From contig JANNEF010000313.1 in assembly GCA_031378375.1 (NCBI GenBank), forward strand, positions 3,893 through 67,892: a stretch of 64,000 bases of DNA, written 5' to 3'. Below the pieces are notes generated by a model, which searched no databases, was not told where the DNA came from, and saw only the letters and a list, made by a program, of their open reading frames with translations. How positions within the stretch are numbered: position 1 is the stretch's first letter; every line of letters begins with the position of its first letter. Made by a program: the position numbers and the translations under genes. Shown piece by piece: positions 121-60,769 of this stretch. The DNA is from Verrucomicrobiota bacterium (GTDB lineage: Bacteria > Verrucomicrobiota > Verrucomicrobiia > Limisphaerales > JANNEF01).

Positions 121-588
121 TCAATATGGAATCTTGTCCTGCTTGCGCCGCCATTCGTCGAAAGCCGCCACCGCCGGATCGCGCAGGAGTTGTTCGCTGG
201 GCAGCCGGCGTTCGCGGGGCGGCAACGGAATCTCCCGGTAAATCAATTCATCATCAAACCCCGCCGCCGCCGCGTCCTGTCGTGTGGCTGCGTAAAACAG
301 CTTGCCGACGCGCGCCCAGTAGATCGCGCTCAGGCACATCGGGCACGGCTCACAACTGGAGTAGAGTTCGCACTCCGCCAGTTGGAAGTTGCCCAGCCGG
401 CGGCACGCCTCGCGCAGCGCGACGATCTCGGCGTGTGCGGTGGGATCGTTCGTCGAGGTCACCTGATTCCAGCCGCGCCCGATGATTTCGCCGGCCCGCA
501 CCACCACCGCGCCAAACGGTCCGCCCTGGCCCGCGCGCATTTTTTCGACGGAGAGGCGGATGGCCTCGCGCATGAATGCTTCGTTCAT
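121..588 (-). CDS. CDA-fold zinc deaminase, guanine deaminase (GuaD)-like
   Basis: 155 aa. HAE zinc/catalytic motif (TAHAEIVALR) and CEPCPMC zinc ligands. The GFDDELIY tail resembles Bacillus-type guanine deaminase (from memory). The ATG overlaps the stop of the upstream GNAT gene. Confidence 0.85.
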   Translation of the reverse strand: MNEAFMREAIRLSVEKMRAGQGGPFGAVVVRAGEIIGRGWNQVTSTNDPTAHAEIVALREACRRLGNFQLAECELYSSCEPCPMCLSAIYWARVGKLFYAATRQDAAAAGFDDELIYREIPLPPRERRLPSEQLLRDPAVAAFDEWRRKQDKIPY

Positions 589-1151
589 AATTCCACGTCT
601 CCCGGGATCAAAGAAAACATCACCGCGTCATGAAGCTGGCCGTGTTGGCGGATGCCGTTTCGCAGCACGCCTTCGCGTTTCGCCCCGGCCTTTTCCGCCA
701 CGCGCTGGCTGGCGAGGTTTTCCACCGCCGCCACGATTTCCAACCGGGTGAAGCCCAGTTCCTTCATTCCAAACCGCGCCGCCAGCCGTGTCGCCGCGCT
801 GGCGAACCCGCGCCTGGTGCGGCTGCTTCTCACCCAGTAGCCGACGTTGGCGAGGTTATGCACGCGGTTGATAAAATTCAGACCGACGCCACCGATGAAC
901 TCCCCGCCCGACTGCTCCGTAATTACGAAGCAATAGTGCTCGCCCTTCTCCCAGTCCGCGTCGCGCGATTGCACGAAGGCCGAACTGTCCGCCATCGAAT
1001 AATCCGGATGACACCATGGCAGCCAGCACGACAGGTCGCCGACCGATTCACGCACGGCCGCAAATAACAATGGCGCGTCGTCCGGGAGATAGCGCCGGAT
1101 GCACACCCGGCCCTCGGCGAATGTCGTCTTGAGTTGCTCTTCGGAATTCAT
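585..1151 (-). CDS. GNAT family N-acetyltransferase (RimJ/RimL-like)
   Basis: 188 aa. Acetyl-CoA binding-type segment VGYWVRSSRTRRGFASAATRLAARFG, and C-terminal ENLASQRVAEKAGAKREG typical of RimJ/RimL-type GNATs. Confidence 0.8.
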   Translation of the reverse strand: MNSEEQLKTTFAEGRVCIRRYLPDDAPLLFAAVRESVGDLSCWLPWCHPDYSMADSSAFVQSRDADWEKGEHYCFVITEQSGGEFIGGVGLNFINRVHNLANVGYWVRSSRTRRGFASAATRLAARFGMKELGFTRLEIVAAVENLASQRVAEKAGAKREGVLRNGIRQHGQLHDAVMFSLIPGDVEL

Positions 1152-1260
1152 GCGGGACGGCGGAAAGTCTCACCGCCGCGCCGGCCCGGCGCAAAACAAA
1201 TTTCCCGCAGCCTTTGACAATCTGAAATCGCGGTGCGACTTCTGCGCGATTTCGCGTGCG

Positions 1261-2265
1261 TCATTGGCTGATGCCGGCGTTCCGCGATTTCCATTGCACG
1301 CGGTGCAACTCAAACCGCGCCGGTTCCCGCGCCGCCGCGTCCAGTTCCACCGTGTAGAAGCCGCCGTCCTTGAGCAGTTCGATCCCCGTGAGTGACGGGC
1401 AGAGCCGCACGTTGAATGGCTTCCAGTGCCGTGCTTCGTTCAGCGCCGCCGTCAACCGCCGCGCCGTCGGACCTAGCCGTTCGAGCCGCGGCATCCCCGC
1501 CAGCAGGCGGCTCTTCCACAATAGCAGCGGCGTGTGCAGGTGCCCGATGATCGTTTGCTCCACCTGCGGCAATTTGCGGCGCACCGCCTCTTCGCGCAGC
1601 AGGAACGGCAGCGCCGTCGGGTCGTGACAGAAAAGCAGCACGCGCTGCTCCGGCCGCAAAGCGTCAAACGCCCGCGCCACCTCCGCAAGGTGCTCCTCGC
1701 GCAAGCACCGCCATTCCGCGCGCTCCTCCGGCAGCGTCTCCGGTTCGTAAACCGGCAGCGCCACCACCGTCGAGACCAGGCCGATCAAAACATAGTTGCC
1801 AAGCGTCACCTGCCAGAACGGTGGCAGGCCCAGTTCCCTCACCGCGCGGTGATAGCTGGAAAGCCGGGGGCCGCCCAGTTCCGCGCCCAGTTTCATCTTG
1901 CCCAACTCGTGATCGCCGAAGCTGGCCTGGAAGTTCGGGCTGAATTTCCCGCGCAGTTTCGCCAGGCATTCCGCCGCGCTCGCGCACGCCGCGTCGTCGC
2001 TCACGCCCACGAACGCGGAGTCGCATGAGTAATCGCCGTTGGCCACGACGAAATCCGGCGCGGGCGTCTGCTCCAGGAACTGGTCGAGCAGATGGTTGTG
2101 CGCGAAGGGATCGCGCAGCCAGATGAAGCGCCGGTACGCCCGCAGGAGCGCGCGCGCCAGGGGGCGCTGCATGCCCGCCAGCGTGTAATCCCCCCGCAGC
2201 CGCTCCGCCGCGCCGGCGTAATGCACGTCGCTGACAATCGCCACGCGAAAGGACGGCTGCCGCAT
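1261..2265 (-). CDS. calcineurin-like metallophosphoesterase
   Basis: 334 aa. Metallophosphoesterase signature blocks in order: VSDVHY, GDYSCD, GDHELG, CHDP, GHLH. Confidence 0.75.
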
Positions 2266-2266
2266 T

Positions 2267-3595
2267 TCACGTTCCCCGCCGGGCCGCCAGCCGGCGGTAT
2301 TTGGCCTGCGCCCAGCTTTGCCATTCGATCTTCTTCAGGTTGCGCGCGGCGGGGTCCTTCCACGCGCCGGCGGCCAGCGCGAGCGCCTCCGTCTCGGTGA
2401 GTGGCATGCGACCCAGTTCCGCCAGATCGGCGGGCGGCAGGCCGCGGGCGATGATGTTCCGCCAGGCCGACTGCAACTCGGCGTGCGTGTCCACCAGCAG
2501 CGCGCCGACGAGCGCGGCGACGACTTCGCGCCGCGCGCGGCTGAGTTTGGCGTCGTAGCGGAAGGTGGTTTTCAACTCGAAGGGCGAGAACTCGATGTTG
2601 CTCACGCCGCGAAACCGCTCGTAGAAATCGGGCCGCACGGACATGCGCTCGATGGAATGCCGGCGCGGCCCGTCGGGATGGCCGCGCGGCAGGAACCACA
2701 GCTTCTGCCCGTCCTCGGAAAGCACGTAGTCCACGAAGCGCCGCGCTGTGGCGAGGTTCGGAGCGCCCTTGAGGATGGCGATGCCGTCGGGGTTCACCGC
2801 CGTGAAATCCTGCGGCAGCGCGAAGGTCATGTTCGTGCGCCCCGCCACGGCGACCTGCGTGAAGCCGTAGAAATCAATCGCAAAGGCGTAGGCCGTTTCA
2901 CCGAGGGTCACATCCTTGGCGGTGCTGCTGGAGACGCGGTCGAACTTGCGCACGTTGCCGCCGATTTGCGCGAGCACCTGCCAGGCGCGCTCCCAGCCAT
3001 AGAACTGGAGGAACGCCTCGAACATCACGTTCATCGTGCCGCTGTTGCGCGGGTCGCCCGCGCCGACCCAGTTGAAGAGTTGCGGCTGCGCCAGTTCCTC
3101 CCAGCGCTGCACCAGCGGCAGGCCGACGATGCGCTGCACGCGCGTGTTCTGCAAAATGCCGAAGCTCGACAGCGCCGCGCCGAACCAGGTGTGGTTCGGA
3201 TCATAAACTTCCACGCCGTTCGCCGTCAGCGGAATGCCTGCGAGCAACTCAGCGGGCGGGTCGTAACGCTGCGAAAGTTTCTTGTCCGCGAGCAACAGGA
3301 ACGGCTCCTGGCCGCCGCCGAAGAAGCAGTCAATGCCGATGCCATCGGGCTTGCTGGTGAACTCCGACTGCACGAAGCGCAGCGCGTCCGCCGTGCCGCC
3401 GGTGTCGCGCCACTCGACCTCCGCCGCTACGCCGAACTGCGCCAGATGCCACCGCGCGAAGCCGCCGCCGAACTCGTGCCGGATGGCGTCCACATGCGGC
3501 GTGAGGATGATGACGCGCGGCGCGGCGCAGAGCGCGAGGGGGATGAGCAGCGTGGCGAGCCACAAACTTCCGACGCGGGAAGGTGCAAACTTCAT
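2267..3595 (-). CDS. ABC transporter periplasmic substrate-binding protein (family-1 SBP fold)
   Basis: The ORF track gives 2267..4321. I trimmed it to the ATG at 3595, which yields a signal peptide ([24 protein letters not shown]). The upstream extension is Arg/Gly-rich and overlaps purH. SBP-like sequence throughout; ligand not assignable. Confidence 0.65.
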
Positions 3596-3603
3596 GTTCG
3601 ACC

Positions 3604-5175
3604 TCAATGCCGGAAATGCCGCACGCCGGTGAACACCATCGCCACGCCGTGCTCGTCCGCAGCGGCGATCACCTCGGCGTCGCGCATCGAGCCGCCCGGT
3701 TGAATCGCGGCGGTCGCGCCGGCTTTGGCGGCGGCGATCAGCCCGTCGGGAAACGGGAAGAAGGCGTCGCTGCACACCACGCTGCCCGCCAGCGAAAGGC
3801 CGGCCTCGCCCGCCTTCCACACGGCGATGCGGCTGGAGTCCACGCGGCTCATCTGCCCCGCGCCGATACCGAGCGTGCGGTCGGGGCCGGCATAGACGAT
3901 GGCGTTGGATTTGATGTGCTTCACCACGCGCCAGCCGAAGAGCATCGCCTGCATCTCGGCGGGCGTGGGCGGGCGCTTGCTCACCACCTTGAGGTCCGCC
4001 ACGCCGACGCTCTTCAAATCGCGCTCCTGCATCAGAAAGGATTCCGCGCCGACGCTGCGCACTTCCAGCGGCGACGCGTTGAGCGGGCTTTGGAGAATCT
4101 TCAGCAGGCGCAGGTTCTTCTTCTTCTGCAACAACGCCGCCGCGTCCGGCGTGAAGTCCGGCGCGACGATGACCTCGCTGAAAATCTCCGCGATGGCCTC
4201 GGCCACCGGCAGGTCGAGCGTGCGGTTCACGGCGATGATGCCGCCAAAGGGCGCCTGCTTGTCCGTGGCGAACGCGCGCTCCCACGCCTCGCGCAAGGTG
4301 TCGCCCTGCCCGACGCCGCACGGGTTGGTGTGCTTGAGGATGGCGAGCGTCGGGCGGTCGTTGACGAATTCGGCGATGAGTTGCGCCGCCGCCGTGAGGT
4401 CCAGAATGTTGTTATACGAAAGCTCCTTGCCGTGAAGCTGCCGGAAGAACTCGTGGAAGCGCCCGTAGAGCGCGGCGCGCTGGTGCGGATTTTCCCCGTA
4501 CCGCAACGGCTGAACGCGCGACGCCTGGACGGCGAGCGACGCGGGTAGTTCGGTTGCCGCCGACGCCAGGGCAGGGGAGGGGGCGCCAAAAATTTTGCCC
4601 AGATACGCGGCAATGCCGGCGTCGTAAGCGGACGTGCGGGCGAAGACGCGCGCGGCCAGTTGCCGGCGCAGTTGGAGCGTGGTGCCGCCTGCGGCCTGGA
4701 CCTGCGCGGCGACTTCGGCGTAGTCCGCCGGGTCCACGATGACGGTGACGCTCTCGTGGTTCTTGGCCGCGCTGCGCAGCATGGAAGGGCCGCCAATGTC
4801 AATGTTCTCAATCGCTTCCTCCAGCGTGACGCCGGGCCGGGCGACGGTTTGCTCGAAGGGATAGAGGTTCACCACCACGAGATCAATGGGCGCGATGCCG
4901 TGCGCTTTGACGGCGGCCTCGTGCGTCGCGTTGCCGCGAATGTAAAGCAGTCCGCCGTGAATCTTCGGGTGCAGCGTCTTCACGCGGCCATCGAGCATTT
5001 CGGGAAAGCCGGTGTGCGCGCTCAAATCCGTGACGGTCAATCCGCCGTCGCGCAGCGCCTTCGCGGTTCCGCCGGTCGAGATGAGTTCAACGCCCGCCGC
5101 GGCCAGCGTCTGGGCGAAGGGCAGCAGGCCGGTCTTGTCGAAAACAGAAAGGAGCGCGCGTTGAATCTTTGCCAT
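3604..5175 (-). CDS. purH: bifunctional AICAR transformylase / IMP cyclohydrolase
   Basis: Canonical PurH N-terminus [17 protein letters not shown]...GGTAKAL...[13 protein letters not shown] and C-terminal QPGGSMRD motif. Start moved to the ATG at 5175 (the MAKIQ start). Confidence 0.95.
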
Positions 5176-5254
5176 AAAAAATTGAGGCGCAAAAATCCCC
5201 GGTGGGTTCGGCGGAGTCAACGGTAGAATCGGAGCGTGAGGCGGGGCAGGGAAC

Positions 5255-5389
5255 CAGTAGTCAGTAGTCAGTAGTCAGTAGTCAGTAGTCAGTAGTCAGT
5301 AGTCAGTAGTCAGTAGTCAGTAGTCAGTAGTCAGTAGTCAGTAGTCAGTAGTCAGTAGTCAGTAGTCAGTAGTCAGTAGGTCAGTAGGT
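5255..5389. repeat. heptanucleotide microsatellite: (CAGTAGT)x17 perfect, then 2x CAGTAGGT
   Basis: Counted directly. 17 uninterrupted 7-nt units span 5255-5373, followed by two 8-nt variants at 5374-5389. Located in the purH/phoU intergenic region. Confidence 0.97.
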
Positions 5390-5423
5390 CAGTGAACCCG
5401 CGCCGGCACCCGTCGCACCGCCG

Positions 5424-5464
5424 TCCCCACTGGTTCACTGGTTACTGACCTACTGATTACTGAT
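5424..5464 (+). repeat. ACTGA-type heptamer arm (reverse complement of the CAGTAGT family); right arm of an imperfect inverted repeat
   Basis: tccccactggttcactggttactgacctactgattactgat. It is complementary to ...gtcagtaggtcagtgaacc at 5380-5398 across a GC-rich ~25-35-nt spacer. Confidence 0.8.
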
Positions 5465-5531
5465 CTGGGCCGCGCGTTCGCCCGGCGGGCGGGAACTTTG
5501 CAATTTCCTTTCGCGCCGCTTTGGGTTTTCC

Positions 5532-6239
5532 TTGGGGCAACGAATTTTTATCGCTGTGCCCGCTCATCTGGAAACTGAACTTGCTGCGTTGAAGGAAAAC
5601 TTGATCGTCATGGCCAGCCATGCCGAGGCGGCGGTCAATCGCGCCGTCAAGGCGCTCATCAAACGCGATGACGATCTCGCCCGGCAGACCAAGGAGGAGG
5701 ACAGCGTGATTGACCGGCTGGAGATCGAGATTGACGAGGCGGCCATCGCCTTGTTGAGCCATCAGCCGGCGGCGACGGACGTGCGGCTCATCACGATGAC
5801 GATGAAGATCGCGCACGACCTGGAGCGCGTGGGCGACGAGGCGACGACGATTTCGCGGCGTTGCCTGGCCTTGAGCCGCGAGCCGCAGCTCAAGCAGGCC
5901 GCCAGCATCCCGCGCATGGCGGCGCTGGCGGTGCAGATGTTGAAGGACGCGCTGGATGCTTTCGTCCACCGCGACCCGGCCCGGGCGCGCGCGGTGATCC
6001 CGCGTGACGAGGCGGTGGACGCGTTGAACAAGCAGATGCGCCGCGAGCTGGCGGCGTGCATGGCCGCGCAGCCCGCGACCATCGGGCGGTGCCTGGACTT
6101 GATGGTGATTTCCAAGAGCGTGGAGCGCATCGCCGACCACGCCACGAACATCGCCGAGGAAGTGGTTTACCTGTGCGAAGGGCGCGACATCCGCCATGGC
6201 GGCAAGAAGGCCAAGGCCGCCACGCCCGCCACGACTTGA
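5532..6239 (+). CDS. phoU: phosphate signalling complex protein PhoU
   Basis: 235 aa. Duplicated PhoU repeat with DLERVGDEA and SVERIADHATNIAE motifs. TTG start at 5532; GTG at 5556 is an alternative. Confidence 0.9.
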   Translation: MGQRIFIAVPAHLETELAALKENLIVMASHAEAAVNRAVKALIKRDDDLARQTKEEDSVIDRLEIEIDEAAIALLSHQPAATDVRLITMTMKIAHDLERVGDEATTISRRCLALSREPQLKQAASIPRMAALAVQMLKDALDAFVHRDPARARAVIPRDEAVDALNKQMRRELAACMAAQPATIGRCLDLMVISKSVERIADHATNIAEEVVYLCEGRDIRHGGKKAKAATPATT

Positions 6240-6249
6240 AGCTCCTGTT

Positions 6250-6933
6250 ATGAAACAAAAAATCCTCGTGGTGGATGATGAGCCGGATGCGGTCGAACTC
6301 ATCGCGTTCAACCTGAAGGCCGCCGGTTATGACGTGGTGACGGCCGACGACGGGGCGGTCGCGTTGAAGAAGGCGCGCGCGGTCCTGCCCGACCTCATCA
6401 TCCTGGACCTGATGTTGCCGGAGGTGGACGGGTTGGAGGTGTGCAAGATCCTCCGGCGCGATCCGCAGACTTCGGCGATCCCGATCCTGATGCTCACGGC
6501 GAAGGTGGCGGAGATTGACCGGGTGCTGGGGCTGGAACTGGGCGCGGATGATTATGTGACGAAGCCGTTCAGCCCGCGCGAGCTGGTGCTGCGCGCGAAG
6601 CGGTTGTTGCGCGGCGCGCAACCGGCCGAGGCGGTCCGCGACCACATCGTCTGGAAGGAATTGACCGTGGATGTTCCCAAACATCTGGTCACGGTGAAAG
6701 GCAAGCCGGTGGATCTGACGGTCACGGAGTTCAAGCTGCTGACCGTGCTGGTGCAGCGGCGCGGGCGCGTGCAGTCGCGCGATCAGTTGCTCCGCGACGT
6801 GTGGGATTACGAGAACGTGATGGACACGCGCACGGTGGACACGCACATGCGGCGCTTGCGCGAGAAGATCGGACCGGCGGCCAAATACCTGGATACGGTG
6901 CGCGGCGTGGGCTACCGCTTCGTCGAGGAGTGA
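6250..6933 (+). CDS. phoB: OmpR/PhoB-family response regulator
   Basis: MKQKILVVDDE...DLIILDLMLPEVDG...KPF receiver domain plus a winged-helix C-terminus (VDTHMRRLREKIG...VRGVGYRF). Lies between phoU and a PhoR-like kinase. ATG at 6250 chosen over the 6196 ORF start. Confidence 0.9.
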   Translation: MKQKILVVDDEPDAVELIAFNLKAAGYDVVTADDGAVALKKARAVLPDLIILDLMLPEVDGLEVCKILRRDPQTSAIPILMLTAKVAEIDRVLGLELGADDYVTKPFSPRELVLRAKRLLRGAQPAEAVRDHIVWKELTVDVPKHLVTVKGKPVDLTVTEFKLLTVLVQRRGRVQSRDQLLRDVWDYENVMDTRTVDTHMRRLREKIGPAAKYLDTVRGVGYRFVEE

Positions 6934-6950
6934 GGGCCGGAGACCAACCG

Positions 6951-8072
6951 ATGCGTGACGCGAACCAATCGGAGTGCGAGCGGTTGCGCGCGGAACTGGC
7001 CGCGTTGCGCGACCAGCACGAGCAGGCCACCGCGCAAATCCAGGCGCAACAGCAGGCGCTTTTCAACAGCATGGCCGAAGGCGTTCTCGTACTCGACGCC
7101 GCCGGGCGCATCCTGCTGGTCAACCAATCGCTCGAACGGCTCTTCCGCCTCACGTCGGACGTGCGGGGCCGCACCATCCTCGAAGCCTTCCGCCTGCGCG
7201 AACTGGCCGAACTCGCGGCCCGCCTCCAACAGGAACGCATGGTCAGCGGTTGTGAACTTGAACTGCCGGGCGTGGACGAACGCTGGCTGGAGGTCAACGC
7301 CGCCGCCGTGCTCGACCGCGCCGGCGCGCATCAGGGCGCGATCCTGGTGTTCCACGATCTGACGCGCCTCAAGCAACTGGAGAACACGCGGCGGGAATTC
7401 GTCGCCAACGTCAGCCACGAACTGCGCACGCCGCTCTCGCTCATCAAAGGCTTCGTGGAAACGCTGCTCGACGGCGCGAAGGACGACCCCGCCACCGCCA
7501 CGCGCTTCCTGCAAACCATCGAGAAGCACGCCGACCGCCTGACGTATCTCATCGAGGATTTGCTGACCATCTCCCGGCTGGAGAGCGGTCGCATCGTGTT
7601 GAACCTGCAACCCGTCGAGTTGCGCGCGGAAGCCCAGCGCGTGCTCGATGATCTCCAGGCACGCGCGGCGGAGAAACACATCACGCTGGAGAACCTGCTG
7701 CCCGCCGGCCTGTCCGCCCGCGCCGATGCGGACCGGCTCGAACAGGTGTTGTTCAACCTCGTCGAGAACGCCCTCAAGTACGGCGCGCCCGCGGGCCGGG
7801 TGCAACTCGGCGCGCGTGCGCGGGCGGAGGGCGGCGTCGAGTTGTGGGTGCGCGATGACGGGCCGGGCATCCCGGAGGAGGCGCGCGAGCGCATCTTCGA
7901 GCGGTTCTATCGCGTGGACCGCGCCCGCTCGCGCGAAACCGGCGGCACGGGGCTGGGGTTGGCCATCGTCAAGCACATCGTCCAGGCGCACGGCGGCGAA
8001 GTGTGGGTGAAGAGCGAACCGGGCCACGGCGCGACCTTCTATTTCACGCTGCCACAGTCGGGGCGGGGTTGA
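6951..8072 (+). CDS. phoR: PAS-domain sensor histidine kinase, PhoR-like, apparently soluble
   Basis: H-box FVANVSHELRTPL, N/G1/G2 boxes (NLVENALKYG, DDGPGIP, GGTGLGLAIVKH), an upstream PAS-like segment and an N-terminal coiled coil. No hydrophobic TM segment seen. ATG at 6951. Confidence 0.85.
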   Translation: MRDANQSECERLRAELAALRDQHEQATAQIQAQQQALFNSMAEGVLVLDAAGRILLVNQSLERLFRLTSDVRGRTILEAFRLRELAELAARLQQERMVSGCELELPGVDERWLEVNAAAVLDRAGAHQGAILVFHDLTRLKQLENTRREFVANVSHELRTPLSLIKGFVETLLDGAKDDPATATRFLQTIEKHADRLTYLIEDLLTISRLESGRIVLNLQPVELRAEAQRVLDDLQARAAEKHITLENLLPAGLSARADADRLEQVLFNLVENALKYGAPAGRVQLGARARAEGGVELWVRDDGPGIPEEARERIFERFYRVDRARSRETGGTGLGLAIVKHIVQAHGGEVWVKSEPGHGATFYFTLPQSGRG

Positions 8073-8139
8073 ACGGAAACAGCCAGCGACCGACGCCCCC
8101 GGTGTCAATTCCACGCCGCAAAATTCCCGGAAAACGCGC

Positions 8140-8168
8140 TTGCAATCAATCCCCGCTTCGCCATACTC
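8140..8168 (+). promoter_or_regulatory. possible sigma70-type promoter (TTGCAA-N17-ATACTC)
   Basis: TTGCAA at 8140-8145, a 17-nt spacer, then ATACTC at 8163-8168. Weak -10 element. It faces into an 826-bp gene-free gap. Confidence 0.25.
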
Positions 8169-8348
8169 GCCACGTTCTCCATAATGGTTTTGCGCAGGTG
8201 AAAAGGTCTTGCGCAGCGGGCAAGGGTGCGGCAGATGAACGATTCAAGTTTTCAATCTCCCAACGCCATCCAACCTCAACCGAGGTTTGGCGCAGCGCCA
8301 CCGACACGCCCGCACACTCCCGGCCTTCGCGCCCTGAACCGCCGGATG

Positions 8349-8410
8349 TTTGTAGTCCCACCTTTAGGCGGTTGGAGGGCCGTGATTCCGCCTGAAGGCG
8401 GGACTACAAA
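8349..8410. repeat. REP-like palindromic element (tttgtagtccc...gggactacaaa)
   Basis: 23-nt arms at 8349-8371 and 8388-8410 are near-complementary, with a 16-nt loop. Confidence 0.85.
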
Positions 8411-8432
8411 CGGCGAACCACCCAGCCAGACC

Positions 8433-8728
8433 GATGCTTTCGGTTCTGCCAACCCCATCCTGCCCGGACGGACTGCCACTTTCGGACCCGAAAGCCCCAT
8501 CCGGCTGAACAGGACCACCTCATTCGGTACCGAAAGCCAGTTCCGCCAGGTCAGAATGCCTCTTTCAGACCCGAAAGCCTCATTCCCCCTGGACCGGACG
8601 CCACTTTCGGACCCGAAAATGCCATTCCGCTTCACCGGAACGCCACTTACAGAACCGAAAATGCCATTCCGCCACGCCAGTCTGCCACCTTCGGCCATGA
8701 AAATCAGCACCTTACGCAAAAACCATGG
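8433..8728. repeat. degenerate ~42-bp tandem array (6-7 units), each with a TTTCGG-ac-CCGAAA-type palindromic core
   Basis: Unit anchors at 8476, 8516, 8559, 8601, 8643 and 8685, with a weaker one at 8433. Both cores and inter-core segments are homologous between units. Confidence 0.8.
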
Positions 8729-8821
8729 TTTTCGCACTTTCGATGTAAGTGAAAATGCTCAAAAAACGCCACTTTTCCCATCCCAACTTGAAACCAGAAA
8801 CTAGAAACCAGAAACTTCCCC

Positions 8822-8867
8822 TCCCCACTGACCGACTGACTCACTGATTACTGACCTACTGATTACT
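8822..8867 (+). repeat. ACTGA-type heptamer arm, second copy
   Basis: tccccactgaccgactgactcactgattactgacctactgattact. It shares both ends (tccccactg... and ...ttactgacctactgattact) with the element at 5424-5464. It ends 31 nt before the ATG at 8899. Confidence 0.85.
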
Positions 8868-8898
8868 TCCCACTCCAACCCTTAACTCCCAACTAAAA

Positions 8899-9696
8899 AT
8901 GCCCTACCGCCGCCTCCCCAACTCCATGCCCGCCGTGCTGCGCACCCTCAAAGCCGCGCGCGACACCTACAAAAACACCCCCGTCGCCGCCGACCGCGCC
9001 ATCAGCGCCGCGCAATTTGCCCTGCTCGACGACGCGCTCCCCGCCAGCCTGCTCAACCGCCTCATCAAAGAAGCCAGCGACGTGGACCTCGCCCAAGCCG
9101 CCCAGGCCCCGCTCACCACCGCGCTGGCCCAGACCGCCGCGCGCCTGACGATGTTCGTCTCCCACTTTCATCAAGTGCTCGACCTGGGCATCTTGCGCGG
9201 CACGTTTGCCGCCGGGGCGCGTGGCTATTATGGACGCGACATCCACGCCACCACCATCCCCGACCTCTCCGACTACGACGCCGTGCAAGAAGCCGCCGAC
9301 CGGCTCACCGCCGGCGAAACCGCGCGCGGCATCGCCGAAGGCGCCGCCTACGTGCCGATGCAACTGCCCAACGCCAGCGAAGTCGCCCTGCTCGACGCGC
9401 AATTCCACACTTTGCGCAGCCAGGCCCAGGCCGCCGAAGTGCGGACCGACCGCGAACAGGAAGAAGCCAGCGCCCTCTACCCCGATGCGCAGGCGCTGGC
9501 GGTGGACATCTGCGACACCGTGGAATTTTTCTACCGCAAAGACCCGGACGCCAGCAGCCGCCGGGTGAAAGCGATGCGTTGGGGCGTGGTGTACATCTAC
9601 GAGCCGAACGAAACACCCGACCCCGGCGCCCCCGCCGGTGCCGGCGGAGCCACCGGCGGAACGACACCTACGCCGCCCCCGCCACCAACTCCCTGA
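8899..9696 (+). CDS. hypothetical protein with Pro/Thr/Gly-rich C-terminal tail
   Basis: 265-aa ORF with normal amino-acid composition, unlike the Arg/Gly/Ala-rich overlapping antisense ORF 8893..9801. No family recognised. Confidence 0.6.
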   Translation: MPYRRLPNSMPAVLRTLKAARDTYKNTPVAADRAISAAQFALLDDALPASLLNRLIKEASDVDLAQAAQAPLTTALAQTAARLTMFVSHFHQVLDLGILRGTFAAGARGYYGRDIHATTIPDLSDYDAVQEAADRLTAGETARGIAEGAAYVPMQLPNASEVALLDAQFHTLRSQAQAAEVRTDREQEEASALYPDAQALAVDICDTVEFFYRKDPDASSRRVKAMRWGVVYIYEPNETPDPGAPAGAGGATGGTTPTPPPPPTP

Positions 9697-18858: not shown

Positions 18859-19653
18859 ATGAAAAAACCTTGGCTTTTTCAACACGCCATCCTGTTGGTG
18901 GCGTTGATGGGATCGCCAGGGGCGAACGCGGAGGAATTCAGCCACACCTTTACGCCCATTGCCGACACGAGCCTCATTCAAATCGAACCGGACCGCAACC
19001 ACGGAGGCGCGCCGTTTTTCAATGCCGGCACCACGCGCACGGGCTGGCGCAATCGCGCGCTGATCCGTTTCGACCTCACCGAGATCCTTCCCGCCGGCGC
19101 GATCATCACCTCGGCCGATCTGGTGCTGGAACCGGTGCGACGCCCCATCATCGGCGCGGTATCGTCTTCGTTCGCGCTGCACCGCGTGCTGCGCGCCTGG
19201 GCCGAGGGTGACAAGATTTTCGAGGGAACCCTGGACGAGCCGATCAGCCCCGGCCTGGGGCTGCCCGCCTCGCCGAACGAGGCGACATGGAACGATCGTT
19301 TTGCTTTCAACGGCGGCTGGAGCGCGCCGGGCGGGATGGCGGGGGTTGATTTTTCCGGTCTGATCAGTGCGACGGCGGGGAGCGATGGATCGCCCGTGGT
19401 TTTTTCCTCCACGCCCGAGCTGGTGGCCGACTTGCAACACTGGGCAAATCAGCCTGCCGCCAACTTCGGCTGGCTGCTCATGAGTCAGTCGGAGGAGGTC
19501 TGGGGCACAGCCCGAGGCCTTGCTTCGCGTGAAAGCGAGTTTCCGCCGCAACTGGTGGTTACCTTCACCGTCGTGCCGGAGCCTGGTTCACTGGTGCTCT
19601 GGTGCCTGGGATTAGGAGTGGCGGCGGTTTGGTCGCGGCGCAAATCCAGATAG
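18859..19653 (+). CDS. PEP-CTERM-anchored secreted protein with DNRLRE-like domain (paralogue)
   Basis: Collinear with the previous gene (PIADTSLIQIEPDRNHGG...RNRALIRFDL...HRVLRAWAEGDK...). C-terminal VPEPGSLVLWCLGLGVAAVWSRRKSR. Confidence 0.8.
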   Translation: MKKPWLFQHAILLVALMGSPGANAEEFSHTFTPIADTSLIQIEPDRNHGGAPFFNAGTTRTGWRNRALIRFDLTEILPAGAIITSADLVLEPVRRPIIGAVSSSFALHRVLRAWAEGDKIFEGTLDEPISPGLGLPASPNEATWNDRFAFNGGWSAPGGMAGVDFSGLISATAGSDGSPVVFSSTPELVADLQHWANQPAANFGWLLMSQSEEVWGTARGLASRESEFPPQLVVTFTVVPEPGSLVLWCLGLGVAAVWSRRKSR

Positions 19654-51167: not shown

Positions 51168-51216
51168 GTGCCGGAGTAATCAGTGGGTCAGTAATCAGTG
51201 AACCAGTTGTCAGTCG
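51168..51216 (-). repeat. ACTGA-type heptamer arm, third copy (reads gacgactgacaactggttcactgattactgacccactgattact on the minus strand)
   Basis: It occupies the whole 49-nt gap between the isomerase stop (51217) and the FucU-like start (51167). Orientation relative to the downstream start codon is the same as at 5424 and 8822. Confidence 0.85.
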
Positions 51217-60144: not shown

Positions 60145-60148
60145 GATT

Positions 60149-60769
60149 ATGAGAGTTCGTAGTCAGTGGTCAGTCGTCAGTAGTCAGGGCCTGCGCAGGC
60201 GTGGGCTGCGGACTACGGACTGCGGACTACGGACTGGCTGCGCCTTCACGCTCGTCGAAATCATGGTTGTCGTTGCCATCATGGGCGTGGTGATGACGAT
60301 GGCCATCCCGTCCATGTGGCGGAAGCTGCACCCTGAATCCATGCAGAAAGCCGTCTCGGACATGATGGAGGCGTGCAGCCACGCGCGGGCGAACGCGATT
60401 TTGGGCGGCGTGATCACCGAACTGGTCGTCCGTCCCTACGACCGGCAAATCAGCGTCCACGCCACCGGCAGTGCCACGGCGGATGATTCGCCATATGGCG
60501 GAGGAGACGCACCGCCATCGCCGAAATCAGGAGGCGGTGGGGAGGGTTTTTCCTTCCGCGTGGCCGAGAACATCATGATCGAAGGGATCCGGTTGAACTT
60601 GGAGGACTGGACGGAGGACGAGGAGGTGCGCGTGCGTTTTTATCCGAATGGAACGGCGGATGAGTTCAGCATTTTTTTCGTTTCGGACAAGGCGGAGCGA
60701 CGGCAGATTTTTCTGGAAGTGACGACGGGGCTCGCGGATCTGGAGTCGGATCCGCTAAAATTCAGGTGA
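60149..60769 (+). CDS. pseudopilin with prepilin-type N-terminal methylation motif (GspH-like), unusually long leader
   Basis: AFTLVEIMVVVAIMGVVMTMAIPS motif begins at codon 32-33. The only in-frame start upstream of it is the ATG at 60149. C-terminus is GspH-like (RVRFYPNGTADEFSIFF). Confidence 0.8.
   Translation: MRVRSQWSVVSSQGLRRRGLRTTDCGLRTGCAFTLVEIMVVVAIMGVVMTMAIPSMWRKLHPESMQKAVSDMMEACSHARANAILGGVITELVVRPYDRQISVHATGSATADDSPYGGGDAPPSPKSGGGGEGFSFRVAENIMIEGIRLNLEDWTEDEEVRVRFYPNGTADEFSIFFVSDKAERRQIFLEVTTGLADLESDPLKFR
60158..60236. repeat. heptamer-repeat inverted pair: (GTNGTCA)x4, GC spacer, (CGGACTR)x4
   Basis: cgtagtcagtggtcagtcgtcagtagtcag (60158-60187) and cggactacggactgcggactacggactgg (60209-60236). 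gtagtc and gactac are complementary. Same heptamer family as 5255-5373. Confidence 0.8.

Follow-up and report, generated by a model that had tools for sequence, protein, structure and literature searches.

The stretch analysed here, which we call the window, is 64 kb of contig JANNEF010000313.1 (positions 3,893 to 67,892) of a Verrucomicrobiota bacterium. Its G+C content is ~62%, and the closest named relatives of its proteins come from Verrucomicrobiota. At 8827-8867, directly after ctcccc, it holds a short tandem array that reads ACTGACCG ACTGACTC ACTGATT ACTGACCT ACTGATT ACT on the forward strand. The ATG at 8899 of a conserved hypothetical gene (8899-9696, hereafter orf8899) lies 31 nt downstream, and this start codon is supported by the annotated product and by two orthologues. 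An earlier note on this DNA described the array (as 8822-8867) together with similar ones at 5424-5464 and, on the minus strand, at 51216-51168, 7 nt before a FucU-like ATG, as well as a related pair at 60158-60236, and proposed a dispersed element placed just 5′ of unrelated start codons. All of these coordinates hold on re-reading, as do the 31-nt and 7-nt distances. Our analysis indicates that 8827-8867 is probably a solo arm (half an element) from a family of miniature palindromes, high in copy number and mobile or formerly mobile, of the kind represented by repetitive extragenic palindromes (REP), miniature inverted-repeat transposable elements (MITE) and Rickettsia palindromic elements (RPE). 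The family is present in at least two bacterial phyla and in some phages.

Copies of the element in the window

A pattern scan for ACTG-core arrays with cores 7-9 nt apart found five arrays at four loci within the window (Table 1). The 20-mer TTACTGACCYACTGATTACT occurs in three exact copies where 100 dinucleotide shuffles predict 0.00, and there are 34 ACTG-N3/4-ACTG doublets against 1.98 +/- 1.3 expected. The three copies carried by the arrays at 5429, 8827 and 51214 match unit for unit in alignment, down to the positions of 7-nt and 8-nt units, and because they share this order and length pattern they are copies of one specific sequence, not arbitrary microsatellites. On this point the earlier note was right: it had argued for a dispersed conserved element over independent microsatellites and had seen that two copies share both termini almost exactly. 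Within the window the family amounts to the full element at 5252-5465, a variant hairpin at 60159-60236 and two solo arms.

The full element sits between the divergent genes purH (ATG ~5175, minus strand) and phoU (plus strand), both identified by Pfam. Its left arm, read on the plus strand, is (CAGTAGT)x18 followed by two CAGTAGGT units, and all 18 CAGTAGT units are perfect. Its right arm, directly preceded by tcccc, reads ACTGGTTC ACTGGTT ACTGACCT ACTGATT ACTGATC. The earlier note had listed this right arm but does not mention its pairing with the (CAGTAGT)n array at 5252-5393: folding of 5240-5475 gives a minimum free energy (MFE) of -72.3 kcal/mol (z = -4.1), with a ~35-bp stem present in the centroid structure. 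The distance to phoU, given there as 68 nt, is uncertain, being 67 nt to the longest open reading frame (ORF; TTG 5532), 90 nt in the gene model (5556) and 144 nt if the start is 5610, as implied by the 209-aa database product P0001.

The second solo arm, which reads ACTGACA ACTGGTTC ACTGATT ACTGACCC ACTGATT ACT on the minus strand (51214-51175), begins 2 nt after the TGA of a xylose-isomerase-like TIM-barrel gene and ends 7 nt before the RbsD/FucU ATG (51167). Both solo arms are essentially unstructured as RNA, with an MFE of -1.5 kcal/mol for 8780-8905 and -8.5 kcal/mol for the fucU-junction arm, neither of them better than shuffles. The variant hairpin, by comparison, folds with -49.2 kcal/mol (60145-60245; z = -3.9). 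No other in-frame ORF than that from ATG 60149 keeps the pseudopilin N-methylation motif AFTLVEIM, and since this ORF takes in both arms of the hairpin, the arms seem to be translated within the pseudopilin leader peptide; their conceptual translation is MRVRSQWSVVSSQGLRRRGLRTTDCGLRTGCAFTLVEIM. The whole leader from ATG 60149 (60149-60240) would read MRVRSQWSVVSSQGLRRRGLRTTDCGLRTGC, and a GTGGTCA unit in place of GTAGTCA avoids an in-frame TAG in it. At the gathering scores of Rfam 15 the only matches in the window are three tRNAs, none of them at the arrays.

Table 1. Positions of the arms, loop and neighbouring heptamer array in the window
Feature	Position	Strand	Extent in core-spacing scan	Composition and setting
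Left arm of full element	5252-5393	-	5393-5252	~20 units; 19.6 copies with 99% matches in Tandem Repeats Finder (TRF)
Loop of full element	5394-5428			GC-rich, 35 nt, between the arms
Right arm of full element	5429-5465	+	5429-5465	five units; pairs with the innermost left array, stem ~35 bp
AACCAGA/AACTAGA (AACYAGA) array	8785-8816	+		four units; precedes the focal arm and forms a composite with it
Focal solo arm	8827-8867	+	8827-8864(67)	five 7/8-nt units and terminal ACT; without inverted partner
Solo arm at the fucU junction	51175-51214	-	51214-51178(75)	five units and ACT; 40 of the 49 nt of the spacer
Left arm of variant hairpin	60159-60187	-	60181-60161	plus-strand units GTAGTCA, GTGGTCA and GTCGTCA; just past the stop codon of type II secretion system (T2SS) protein F
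Right arm of variant hairpin	60206-60236	+		different heptamer, CGGACTA/CGGACTG; pairs imperfectly with the left arm

A palindromic family with a fixed arm order

The 20-mer was scanned against 185,579 species-representative genomes and matched at least 109 stretches. By record title, the matches listed comprise 65 from Verrucomicrobiota, 37 from Chloroflexota and 7 others, multi-Mb contigs and one complete chromosome included, and there is no cyanobacterial record among them. Such titles rest partly on metagenome-assembled genomes (MAGs), in which contamination is possible. Among the comparison stretches, which we label with L-numbers, L011 is titled a Bifidobacterium MAG and is orthologous to an Akkermansia MAG contig at ~80% nucleotide identity, and L068, titled an Acidoferrum MAG like L030 and L049, has 70-72% nucleotide identity to a Limisphaerales contig. 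L011 and L068 look like mis-binned Verrucomicrobiota DNA, so that apparent records of the family from Actinomycetota and Acidobacteriota call for caution.

The usual form of the family is an imperfect palindrome, 5′-AAGT(AATCAGT/AGGTCAGT)n, a variable loop and (ACTGATT/ACTGACCY)n ACTT-3′, in which left-arm units can also be read as CAGTAAT/CAGTAGGT and the unit core is YTACTGA (TCAGTAR on the opposite strand). A hairpin partner (duplex below -18 kcal/mol) was found on the 5′ side in 148 of 196 arrays (~75%) and on the 3′ side only in 4 of 196. In the 55 hairpins with at least three units per arm, the modal arm has four units (~29-31 bp) and the loops, of 1-122 nt, are non-homologous in sequence; the median MFE of the hairpins is -44 kcal/mol. 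Cores are spaced 7 or 8 nt apart, and the ordered series of 7- and 8-nt units seen in the window recurs in other genomes. ACTGATT makes up 41% of 710 units, ACTGACCT 18% and ACTGACCC 6%, the rest being others, with just two units reading ACTGATA (a rotated TAACTGA); these shares are biased, since all genome loci are among the matches listed for one 20-mer. Both arms of a hairpin were counted separately. The outer terminus ACTGATTACTT is kept in 56 of 196 arrays even though it lies outside the search pattern. Two tandem copies of an element in L160 (2400-2700) and L161 have ACTG-family arms around a conserved centre of ~95 nt, unlike the variable loops elsewhere.

The order of the two arms is absolute. 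A generic pattern of three CAGT cores, a gap and three ACTG cores matched 45 times in the genome loci and 136 times in the viral loci (181 in all), whereas the reversed pattern, with the opposite arm order, matched none in either set; the 20-mer search is neutral as to arm order. With a strict pattern, viral contigs gave four matches in normal order and none reversed. Across 241 million metagenome records the strict reversed pattern matched twice, both times at the junction of two adjacent normal elements. Copying from a common ancestor predicts such an identical arm order in every copy. An A-rich 5′ arm paired with a U-rich 3′ arm, the design of a bidirectional terminator, was considered as the cause of this order and set aside: other heptamer hairpins at orthologous sites swap the A-rich arm.

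Orthologous sites are variously filled, empty or resized. At the fucU junction the five-unit arm is kept in L162 (95% amino-acid identity), where its central 30 nt are identical and the coding flank is ~90% identical. In L163 (also 95%) the arm is split by a different palindrome of ~100 nt, in L164 (90%) ACKGACC heptamers stand in its place, and L165 and L166 (87%) have a 28-nt spacer without array. The palindrome in L163 (654-803) consists of GATTAAGA/GATTACGA 8-mers and is nested within the ACTG arm. Upstream of the orf8899 orthologues in L167 (76%) and L169 (74%), the ATG and a 42-nt repeat array are kept, AAC- or TCC-type heptamers lie upstream and the ACTG arm is absent; the AAC-type array of L167 is at the position matching the AACYAGA array of the window. 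The phoU orthologues of L110-L112 (74-76%) lack an array and have different neighbouring genes. Where copies are shared, the arms are better conserved than the loops. Between L011 and L033 the arm bearing the 20-mer is identical, the other arm is partly kept and the loop has diverged. Between L083 and L092 a (CTCCTAG)n + (ACTGATT)n composite 5′ of an rluB-like ATG is ~95% conserved around an unalignable centre, and its distal arm has five units in one genome and two in the other. Wherever a comparison is possible, the genes around the elements keep their order. A metagenome scan with the window-specific loop returned no strain-level unit-number variants of the window tract. These filled, empty and resized sites indicate that individual copies turn over at about genus level; the family itself is old and widespread.

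Other Verrucomicrobiota genomes have composites comparable to that formed by the AACYAGA array and the focal arm, in which (CTCCTAG)n precedes (ACTGATT)n, but the eight cases, with poor gene calls, are too few for statistics. The spacer upstream of orf8899 (8073-8898) has further repeats of its own. An array with a period of ~42 nt (8453-8680, five copies, without Rfam match) is built from the hairpin motif GCCACTTTCGGACCCGAAA and ~22 variable nt, and it is also found 5′ of the orthologous MPYRR[IL]PNSMPAV... gene, with ~13 copies in L167 (~1790-2330) and ~8 copies in L169 (~2000-2300). Its retention in these two other Verrucomicrobiota contigs indicates a conserved feature of orf8899-type upstream regions. 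The same spacer contains a REP-like palindrome at 8353-8410 with the perfect arms GTAGTCCCACCTTTAGGCGG...CCGCCTGAAGGCGGGACTAC and GTAG/CTAC ends (MFE -47 kcal/mol, z = -7.4).

Gene ends, phages and translated copies

For gene calls in the comparison loci we used a 3-periodic Markov model, self-trained; it recovered the window's Pfam-supported genes and misses some genes. In the loci of the matches listed, the outer end of an arm lies within 30 nt of a gene end 65 times and of a gene start 25 times (~2.6-fold, p = 3e-5), which does not support a definition of the element by its place directly 5′ of start codons. Among 86 stop-proximal cases, 34 have the neighbouring gene's stop codon within the array itself; among 52 start-proximal arrays, 25 end 0-22 nt ahead of the ATG, and no spacing is preferred. 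Solo arms turn their outer end to the nearest gene in 17 cases against 2 (within 40 nt). Full elements fill a median of 88% of their intergenic spacer and occupy 21 tandem, 10 convergent and 5 divergent junctions, where the baseline is 70%, 16% and 14%. The bracketed genes are ordinary housekeeping genes (ftsA, groES, holA, a bacterial microcompartment (BMC) shell protein, Rrf2, Usp, ADH) and share no function.

The three intergenic copies of the window do have the same orientation toward a downstream start codon (3/3), as the earlier note had observed. Given the fixed arm order, however, a gene start beside an element necessarily faces a forward ACTGAYY arm and a gene end necessarily faces CAGTAAT. 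The common orientation toward each downstream gene therefore follows from the arm order, and no function in the 5′ untranslated region (UTR) is required for it. Random orientation and position relative to genes, which the earlier note had named as a refutation, are not observed either: placement is strongly non-random, but the pattern is one of fixed arm order and stop proximity instead of the one proposed.

The exact 20-mer is absent from viral contigs, and (ACTGATT)3 matches 45 IMG/VR stretches. One phage, 99.9% identical and recovered from at least nine metagenome samples (the L129 group, with L116, L127, L133, L145, L153, L155 and others), encodes head-tail connector, head-completion, Phage_tail_S and Gp77-adaptor proteins and carries ten hairpin clusters in 9.1 kb, at ~3 arrays per kb; by an estimate from coordinates, arrays make up ~17% of the contig. 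Clusters stand at nearly all junctions of structural genes save where genes overlap, with stops that abut or enter the array and starts 1-25 nt after it, and the loop is often AAAGGCAAAA. Near-identical contigs of this phage differ by one 50-nt block of units (three versus four blocks), and the L150/L124 and L142/L143 phages have the same junction pattern. It seems unlikely that efficient terminators would stand between all late structural genes, and the phage hairpins may be either tolerated selfish DNA or processing and stability elements.

Some copies lie inside genes, essential ones such as uvrA included. UvrA of L041 (Limisphaerales; gene 3398-6733) is 63% identical to UvrA of L068 (gene 407-3673), and its residues 441-490 read LPWSAKR-VISGPVISESVTSNQ-SETSPAALLN-TDLLITGSLITGSLITD-C where L068 reads ING-LT. 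This 50-codon segment contains a complete arm-loop-arm element and stands against five codons in L068, a net gain of 45 codons in frame. A second UvrA element near residue 875 (SVIS...LITD) is common to both genomes, its arms conserved and its loop diverged. In a GlyRS-like ORF of L047 and L079 a solo arm is translated as VEVISGSVISETV and conserved between the two species. A 7-nt and an 8-nt unit together give a 15-nt period with one open frame per strand (CTG ATT ACT GAC CTA = LITDL; AGG TCA GTA ATC AGT = RSVIS), which explains how in-gene copies survive, and these frames agree with those of the translated copies. Selection for stop codons in all three frames of both strands was also considered and set aside, because the common 7+8 alternation leaves this one frame open and the translated copies use it. 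For the first uvrA element, which lies in a conserved codon context with no seed in the orthologue, insertion predicts what the alignment shows, while slippage in place would hardly give it. RPE offer a parallel (PMC10969869). Arrays also lie within long predicted ORFs in L066, L038 and L077.

Alternative explanations, known systems and significance

Host-selected RNA punctuation, by which the hairpins would be bidirectional terminators, mRNA 3′-end protection or RNase III sites and their spread would reflect function and not selfish mobility, has several observations in its favour. The stems are long, the spacers are filled, stops often lie inside the arrays, convergent pairs are in mild excess (10/36 versus 16%), arms outlast loops, and the L129-group phage keeps hairpins at nearly every structural-operon junction despite the share of the contig that they take up. 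The modal four-unit arm also suits the size of an RNase III substrate, with which a ~29-31-bp stem is compatible. We nevertheless consider this explanation unlikely. Folding energies at 18 tandem sites do not differ between sense and antisense (7 versus 11, p = 0.30). The defining features of a Rho-independent terminator (GC-rich stem, short loop, U-tract) are not found together at the window copies: no terminator consensus was found at any of them, there is no U-tract, and the 3′ flank reads ACTT(T) at best. Structure alone leaves the missing reversed order unexplained, and other heptamer hairpins in the same genomes swap the A-rich arm. In addition, 5252-5465 lies between divergent starts, solo arms cannot fold, and the translated copies in uvrA cannot be punctuation.

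It is rather improbable that the arrays are cis-regulatory 5′-UTR elements, bound by a protein, ribosomal protein S1 or the ribosome and controlling translation initiation downstream. This explanation has a close precedent in the TAACTGA direct repeats of marine Beggiatoaceae, some Cyanobacteria and Bacteroidetes, which occur in 2-6 copies and are often 'split' by related units (MacGregor 2015, PMC4679880). In one Beggiatoaceae genome they are mostly forward and directly 5′ of start codons without ribosome-binding site, and a translation-initiation model was proposed; only 1 of 170 sets is inverted, TTACTGA repeats are rare (one set), and related strains have indels in 7-nt steps at the repeats (PMC4679880). 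The repeats studied here are one base away (TTACTGA/CTACTGA), likewise form short intergenic arrays scattered over phyla beside genes without common function, and in the window (3/3) resemble them in their start-proximal forward placement. The window copies stand 7-31 nt before a start codon (up to ~145 nt for phoU), have no Shine-Dalgarno motif between array and ATG and, as solo arms, are unstructured as RNA; elsewhere, nearly half of the start-proximal arrays end at most 22 nt from the ATG, and the core of the fucU arm is better conserved in the 95% orthologue than the coding flank. However, the unit here is not TAACTGA, ~75% of our arrays belong to fixed-order hairpins with 8-nt units mixed in, stop-proximal placement prevails, and the family extends to Verrucomicrobiota, Chloroflexota and phages. 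No distance to the ATG is favoured, the arm is missing at orf8899 and phoU orthologues with the same start codon, copies lie within ORFs, downstream genes share no function, and the forward orientation at starts is automatic from the arm order of the palindrome. When 5000-9100 was scanned for sigma-70 promoter and terminator consensus sequences, none turned up at the arrays. The 5′-UTR structure or binding array offered by the earlier note is not supported, the solo arm being unfolded and absent from orthologues and other copies lying inside ORFs. Annotating the arm before orf8899 as a regulatory element of this particular gene would be unwarranted.

Independent simple-sequence repeats (SSRs), grown in place by replication slippage, to which heptamers are most prone, and alike by convergence, with (CAGTAGT)n perhaps a phase-variable switch, are a very unlikely source of the family. 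The 18 perfect CAGTAGT units and the differing unit numbers of orthologous copies are what slippage would give, and heptamers are reported as the commonest long SSR in prokaryotes (Mrazek 2007, quoted in PMC4679880). Heptanucleotide SSRs upstream of the Haemophilus influenzae hmw adhesin genes tune expression, according to excerpts of PMC8262952 and PMC12721329, and may be relevant to the ~20-unit tract at 5252-5393, although they switch a surface protein at one contingency locus and do not form a dispersed palindromic family. A phase-variable contingency SSR is a long perfect tract that differs in length between strains and switches a surface or virulence gene; the window tract is perfect over 18 units, but its neighbours purH and phoU are housekeeping genes, not typical contingency genes. 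The ordered mixture of 7- and 8-nt units and the termini common to the window copies, an order that recurs in other genomes, argue against independent growth, as do the absolute arm order and the whole arm-loop-arm unit in uvrA.

In favour of such repeats, period 7 dominates the intergenic tandem repeats of these genomes over many unit sequences. With ACTG/CAGT units excluded, TRF found 94 non-genic tandem repeats of period 7, 39 of period 8, 24 of period 6 and 20 of period 9, and the orthologous spacers of L011 and L033 hold heptamer hairpins of different units, CGTAAAT and CCGAAAT. This dominance of period 7, together with unit-swapped orthologous hairpins, reveals a general tendency to heptamer-based hairpins, of which the ACTG family is the most widespread sequence-defined member. 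Other intergenic hairpins of 7/8-nt units with unrelated sequences (GTTGAATC, CGTAAAT, CCGAAAT, AGTGGACC) were seen in L011 (554-776 and 2070-2173), L033 (1921-2075) and L037 (2743-2909), and orthologous spacers preserve the hairpin architecture while the unit sequence changes. In the window, a CTGGTKC-like array with a period of 7-8 nt and 4-5 units (19573-19612) lies inside a predicted gene (18907-19653) and is unrelated to the ACTG family.

DNA-level sites for protein binding or recombination, be they for nucleoid or topology proteins, uptake-signal-like sequences or gene-shuffling linkers, have the slimmest chance of all: the same sequence in several phyla and in phages, the location at gene boundaries, the like folding of both strands, the palindrome nested in the L163 arm and the inverted pairs, an arrangement typical of uptake sequences and of REP/BIME elements, could all be read this way, but no candidate binding protein emerged, neighbouring genes keep their order wherever they can be compared, and the same observations would suit a selfish repeat. 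A role in rearrangement has been suggested for long TAACTGA arrays (PMC4679880). Explanations by IHF, DnaA, Chi or restriction sites were weighed only in outline, and no supporting feature emerged.

We therefore return to a copied palindromic repeat. Compared with known systems, the family shares dispersed intergenic tandem heptamers with the short tandemly repeated repetitive (STRR) sequences of Cyanobacteria, said to have been described by Mazel et al. in 1990 from heterocystous species and reportedly built from three classic units, two of which, CCCCAGT and CAACAGT, have a CAGT core; unit sequences and taxa differ. REPINs are mobilised by RAYT transposases (Y1/HUH), whose genes typically have the repeats at their flanks, REP families are lineage-specific, and many REPs carry a GTAG tetranucleotide, the palindrome having a GTAG or CGTC tag at one end. 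REP are treated as a class of extragenic palindromes in an excerpt of PMC3733652. Like REP and REPINs, our elements are high-copy extragenic palindromes that occur as inverted doublets forming hairpins and as singlets, prefer gene ends and operon spacers and leave no target-site duplication. The CAGTAGT units of the window's long arm, and CAGTAGGT, contain GTAG. Unlike REP, the arms are tandem 7/8-nt arrays and not a unique palindrome of 20-40 nt, most of them have GTAA (in the commonest unit CAGTAAT and in the outer terminus AAGTAATC), their spacing is variable, and the family crosses phyla. The inverted arms with absolute order and the ACTGATTACTT terminus recall the conserved outer ends of MITEs, but no target-site duplication, conserved interior or parent insertion sequence was seen. 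RPE are ~100-150 bp long, as are the elements here, and occur in spacers as well as in frame in unrelated housekeeping genes, where they are translated (PMC10969869). In-frame translated copies in uvrA and the GlyRS-like gene and insertion polymorphism at orthologous sites are found here too; RPE, however, are conserved over their full length within one genus, while these elements keep only their arms, and the arms are simple repeats. The family lacks the conserved spacing of REPINs and the target-site duplication and conserved interior of MITEs but behaves like them in its high copy number, inverted termini, insertion polymorphism and in-frame insertions, and we therefore place it among REP/MITE/RPE elements as a variant with STRR/TAACTGA-like units. 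Full-text literature searches (with Verrucomicrobia/Chloroflexi as optional terms, cyanobacterial heptamers, and TAACTGA) found no description of such a hairpin family, and neither heptamers nor Verrucomicrobiota or Chloroflexota come up in a review on prokaryotic MITEs from 2024 (PMC10969869).

In the mechanism we favour, copies would insert into spacers and now and then, in frame, into genes, mobilised in trans by a putative orientation-specific factor. Arms would then gain and lose units by slippage, from which the ~20-unit arm may have arisen, loops would drift freely, and solo arms would be remnants or half-insertions; purifying selection could be the reason why elements stop exactly at coding boundaries. 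Copying would explain at once why the arm order never varies, why termini are conserved, and why some sites are filled, others empty and some copies lie within genes, and the 'small mobile repeat' that the earlier note had offered among its options agrees with it. The main molecular consequence would be at the transcript level: full elements may place an imperfect stem-loop of ~30 bp between cistrons, and the solo arms at 8827-8867 and 51214-51175 may form an unstructured, AUG-free leader without Shine-Dalgarno motif.

Several observations weigh against this proposal. The loops are variable and non-homologous, unlike those of classical MITEs or REPINs, and the arms are simple tandem arrays, which slippage alone can create and resize. 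The period-7 dominance of many unit sequences implies that a general mutational or selective bias contributes. No direct repeats (target-site duplication) are visible at the flanks of the elements, and a Pfam scan found no transposase or RAYT-like gene among 10 element-flanked genes. All three window copies face starts, which is unusual if ~29% of copies are start-proximal (p ~0.03, n=3). Finally, gene calls in the loci come from our own crude model, and the choice of all genome loci via one 20-mer biases the unit statistics.

A more far-reaching idea, which we put forward as speculative and on balance doubtful, is that YTACTGA hairpins are more than selfish repeats and serve as recognition sites of a putative orientation-specific factor that distant phyla have in common and phages exploit, and so form a gene-punctuation or cassette-boundary system. 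If this were true, such recognition would explain the arm order that is never violated, the conserved outer terminus, a 7+8-nt design that can be translated and the saturation of a phage structural operon.

For annotation, the elements fill most of many spacers and so affect gene calling, the delimitation of 5′ and 3′ UTRs and assembly in widely studied soil, freshwater and sludge lineages. For the genomes that carry them, they supply stop codons, reshape gene ends and sometimes add peptide segments to proteins. The ACTG family offers a concrete handle on the heptamer repeats of prokaryotes, through which mobility and the recognising factor become directly testable.

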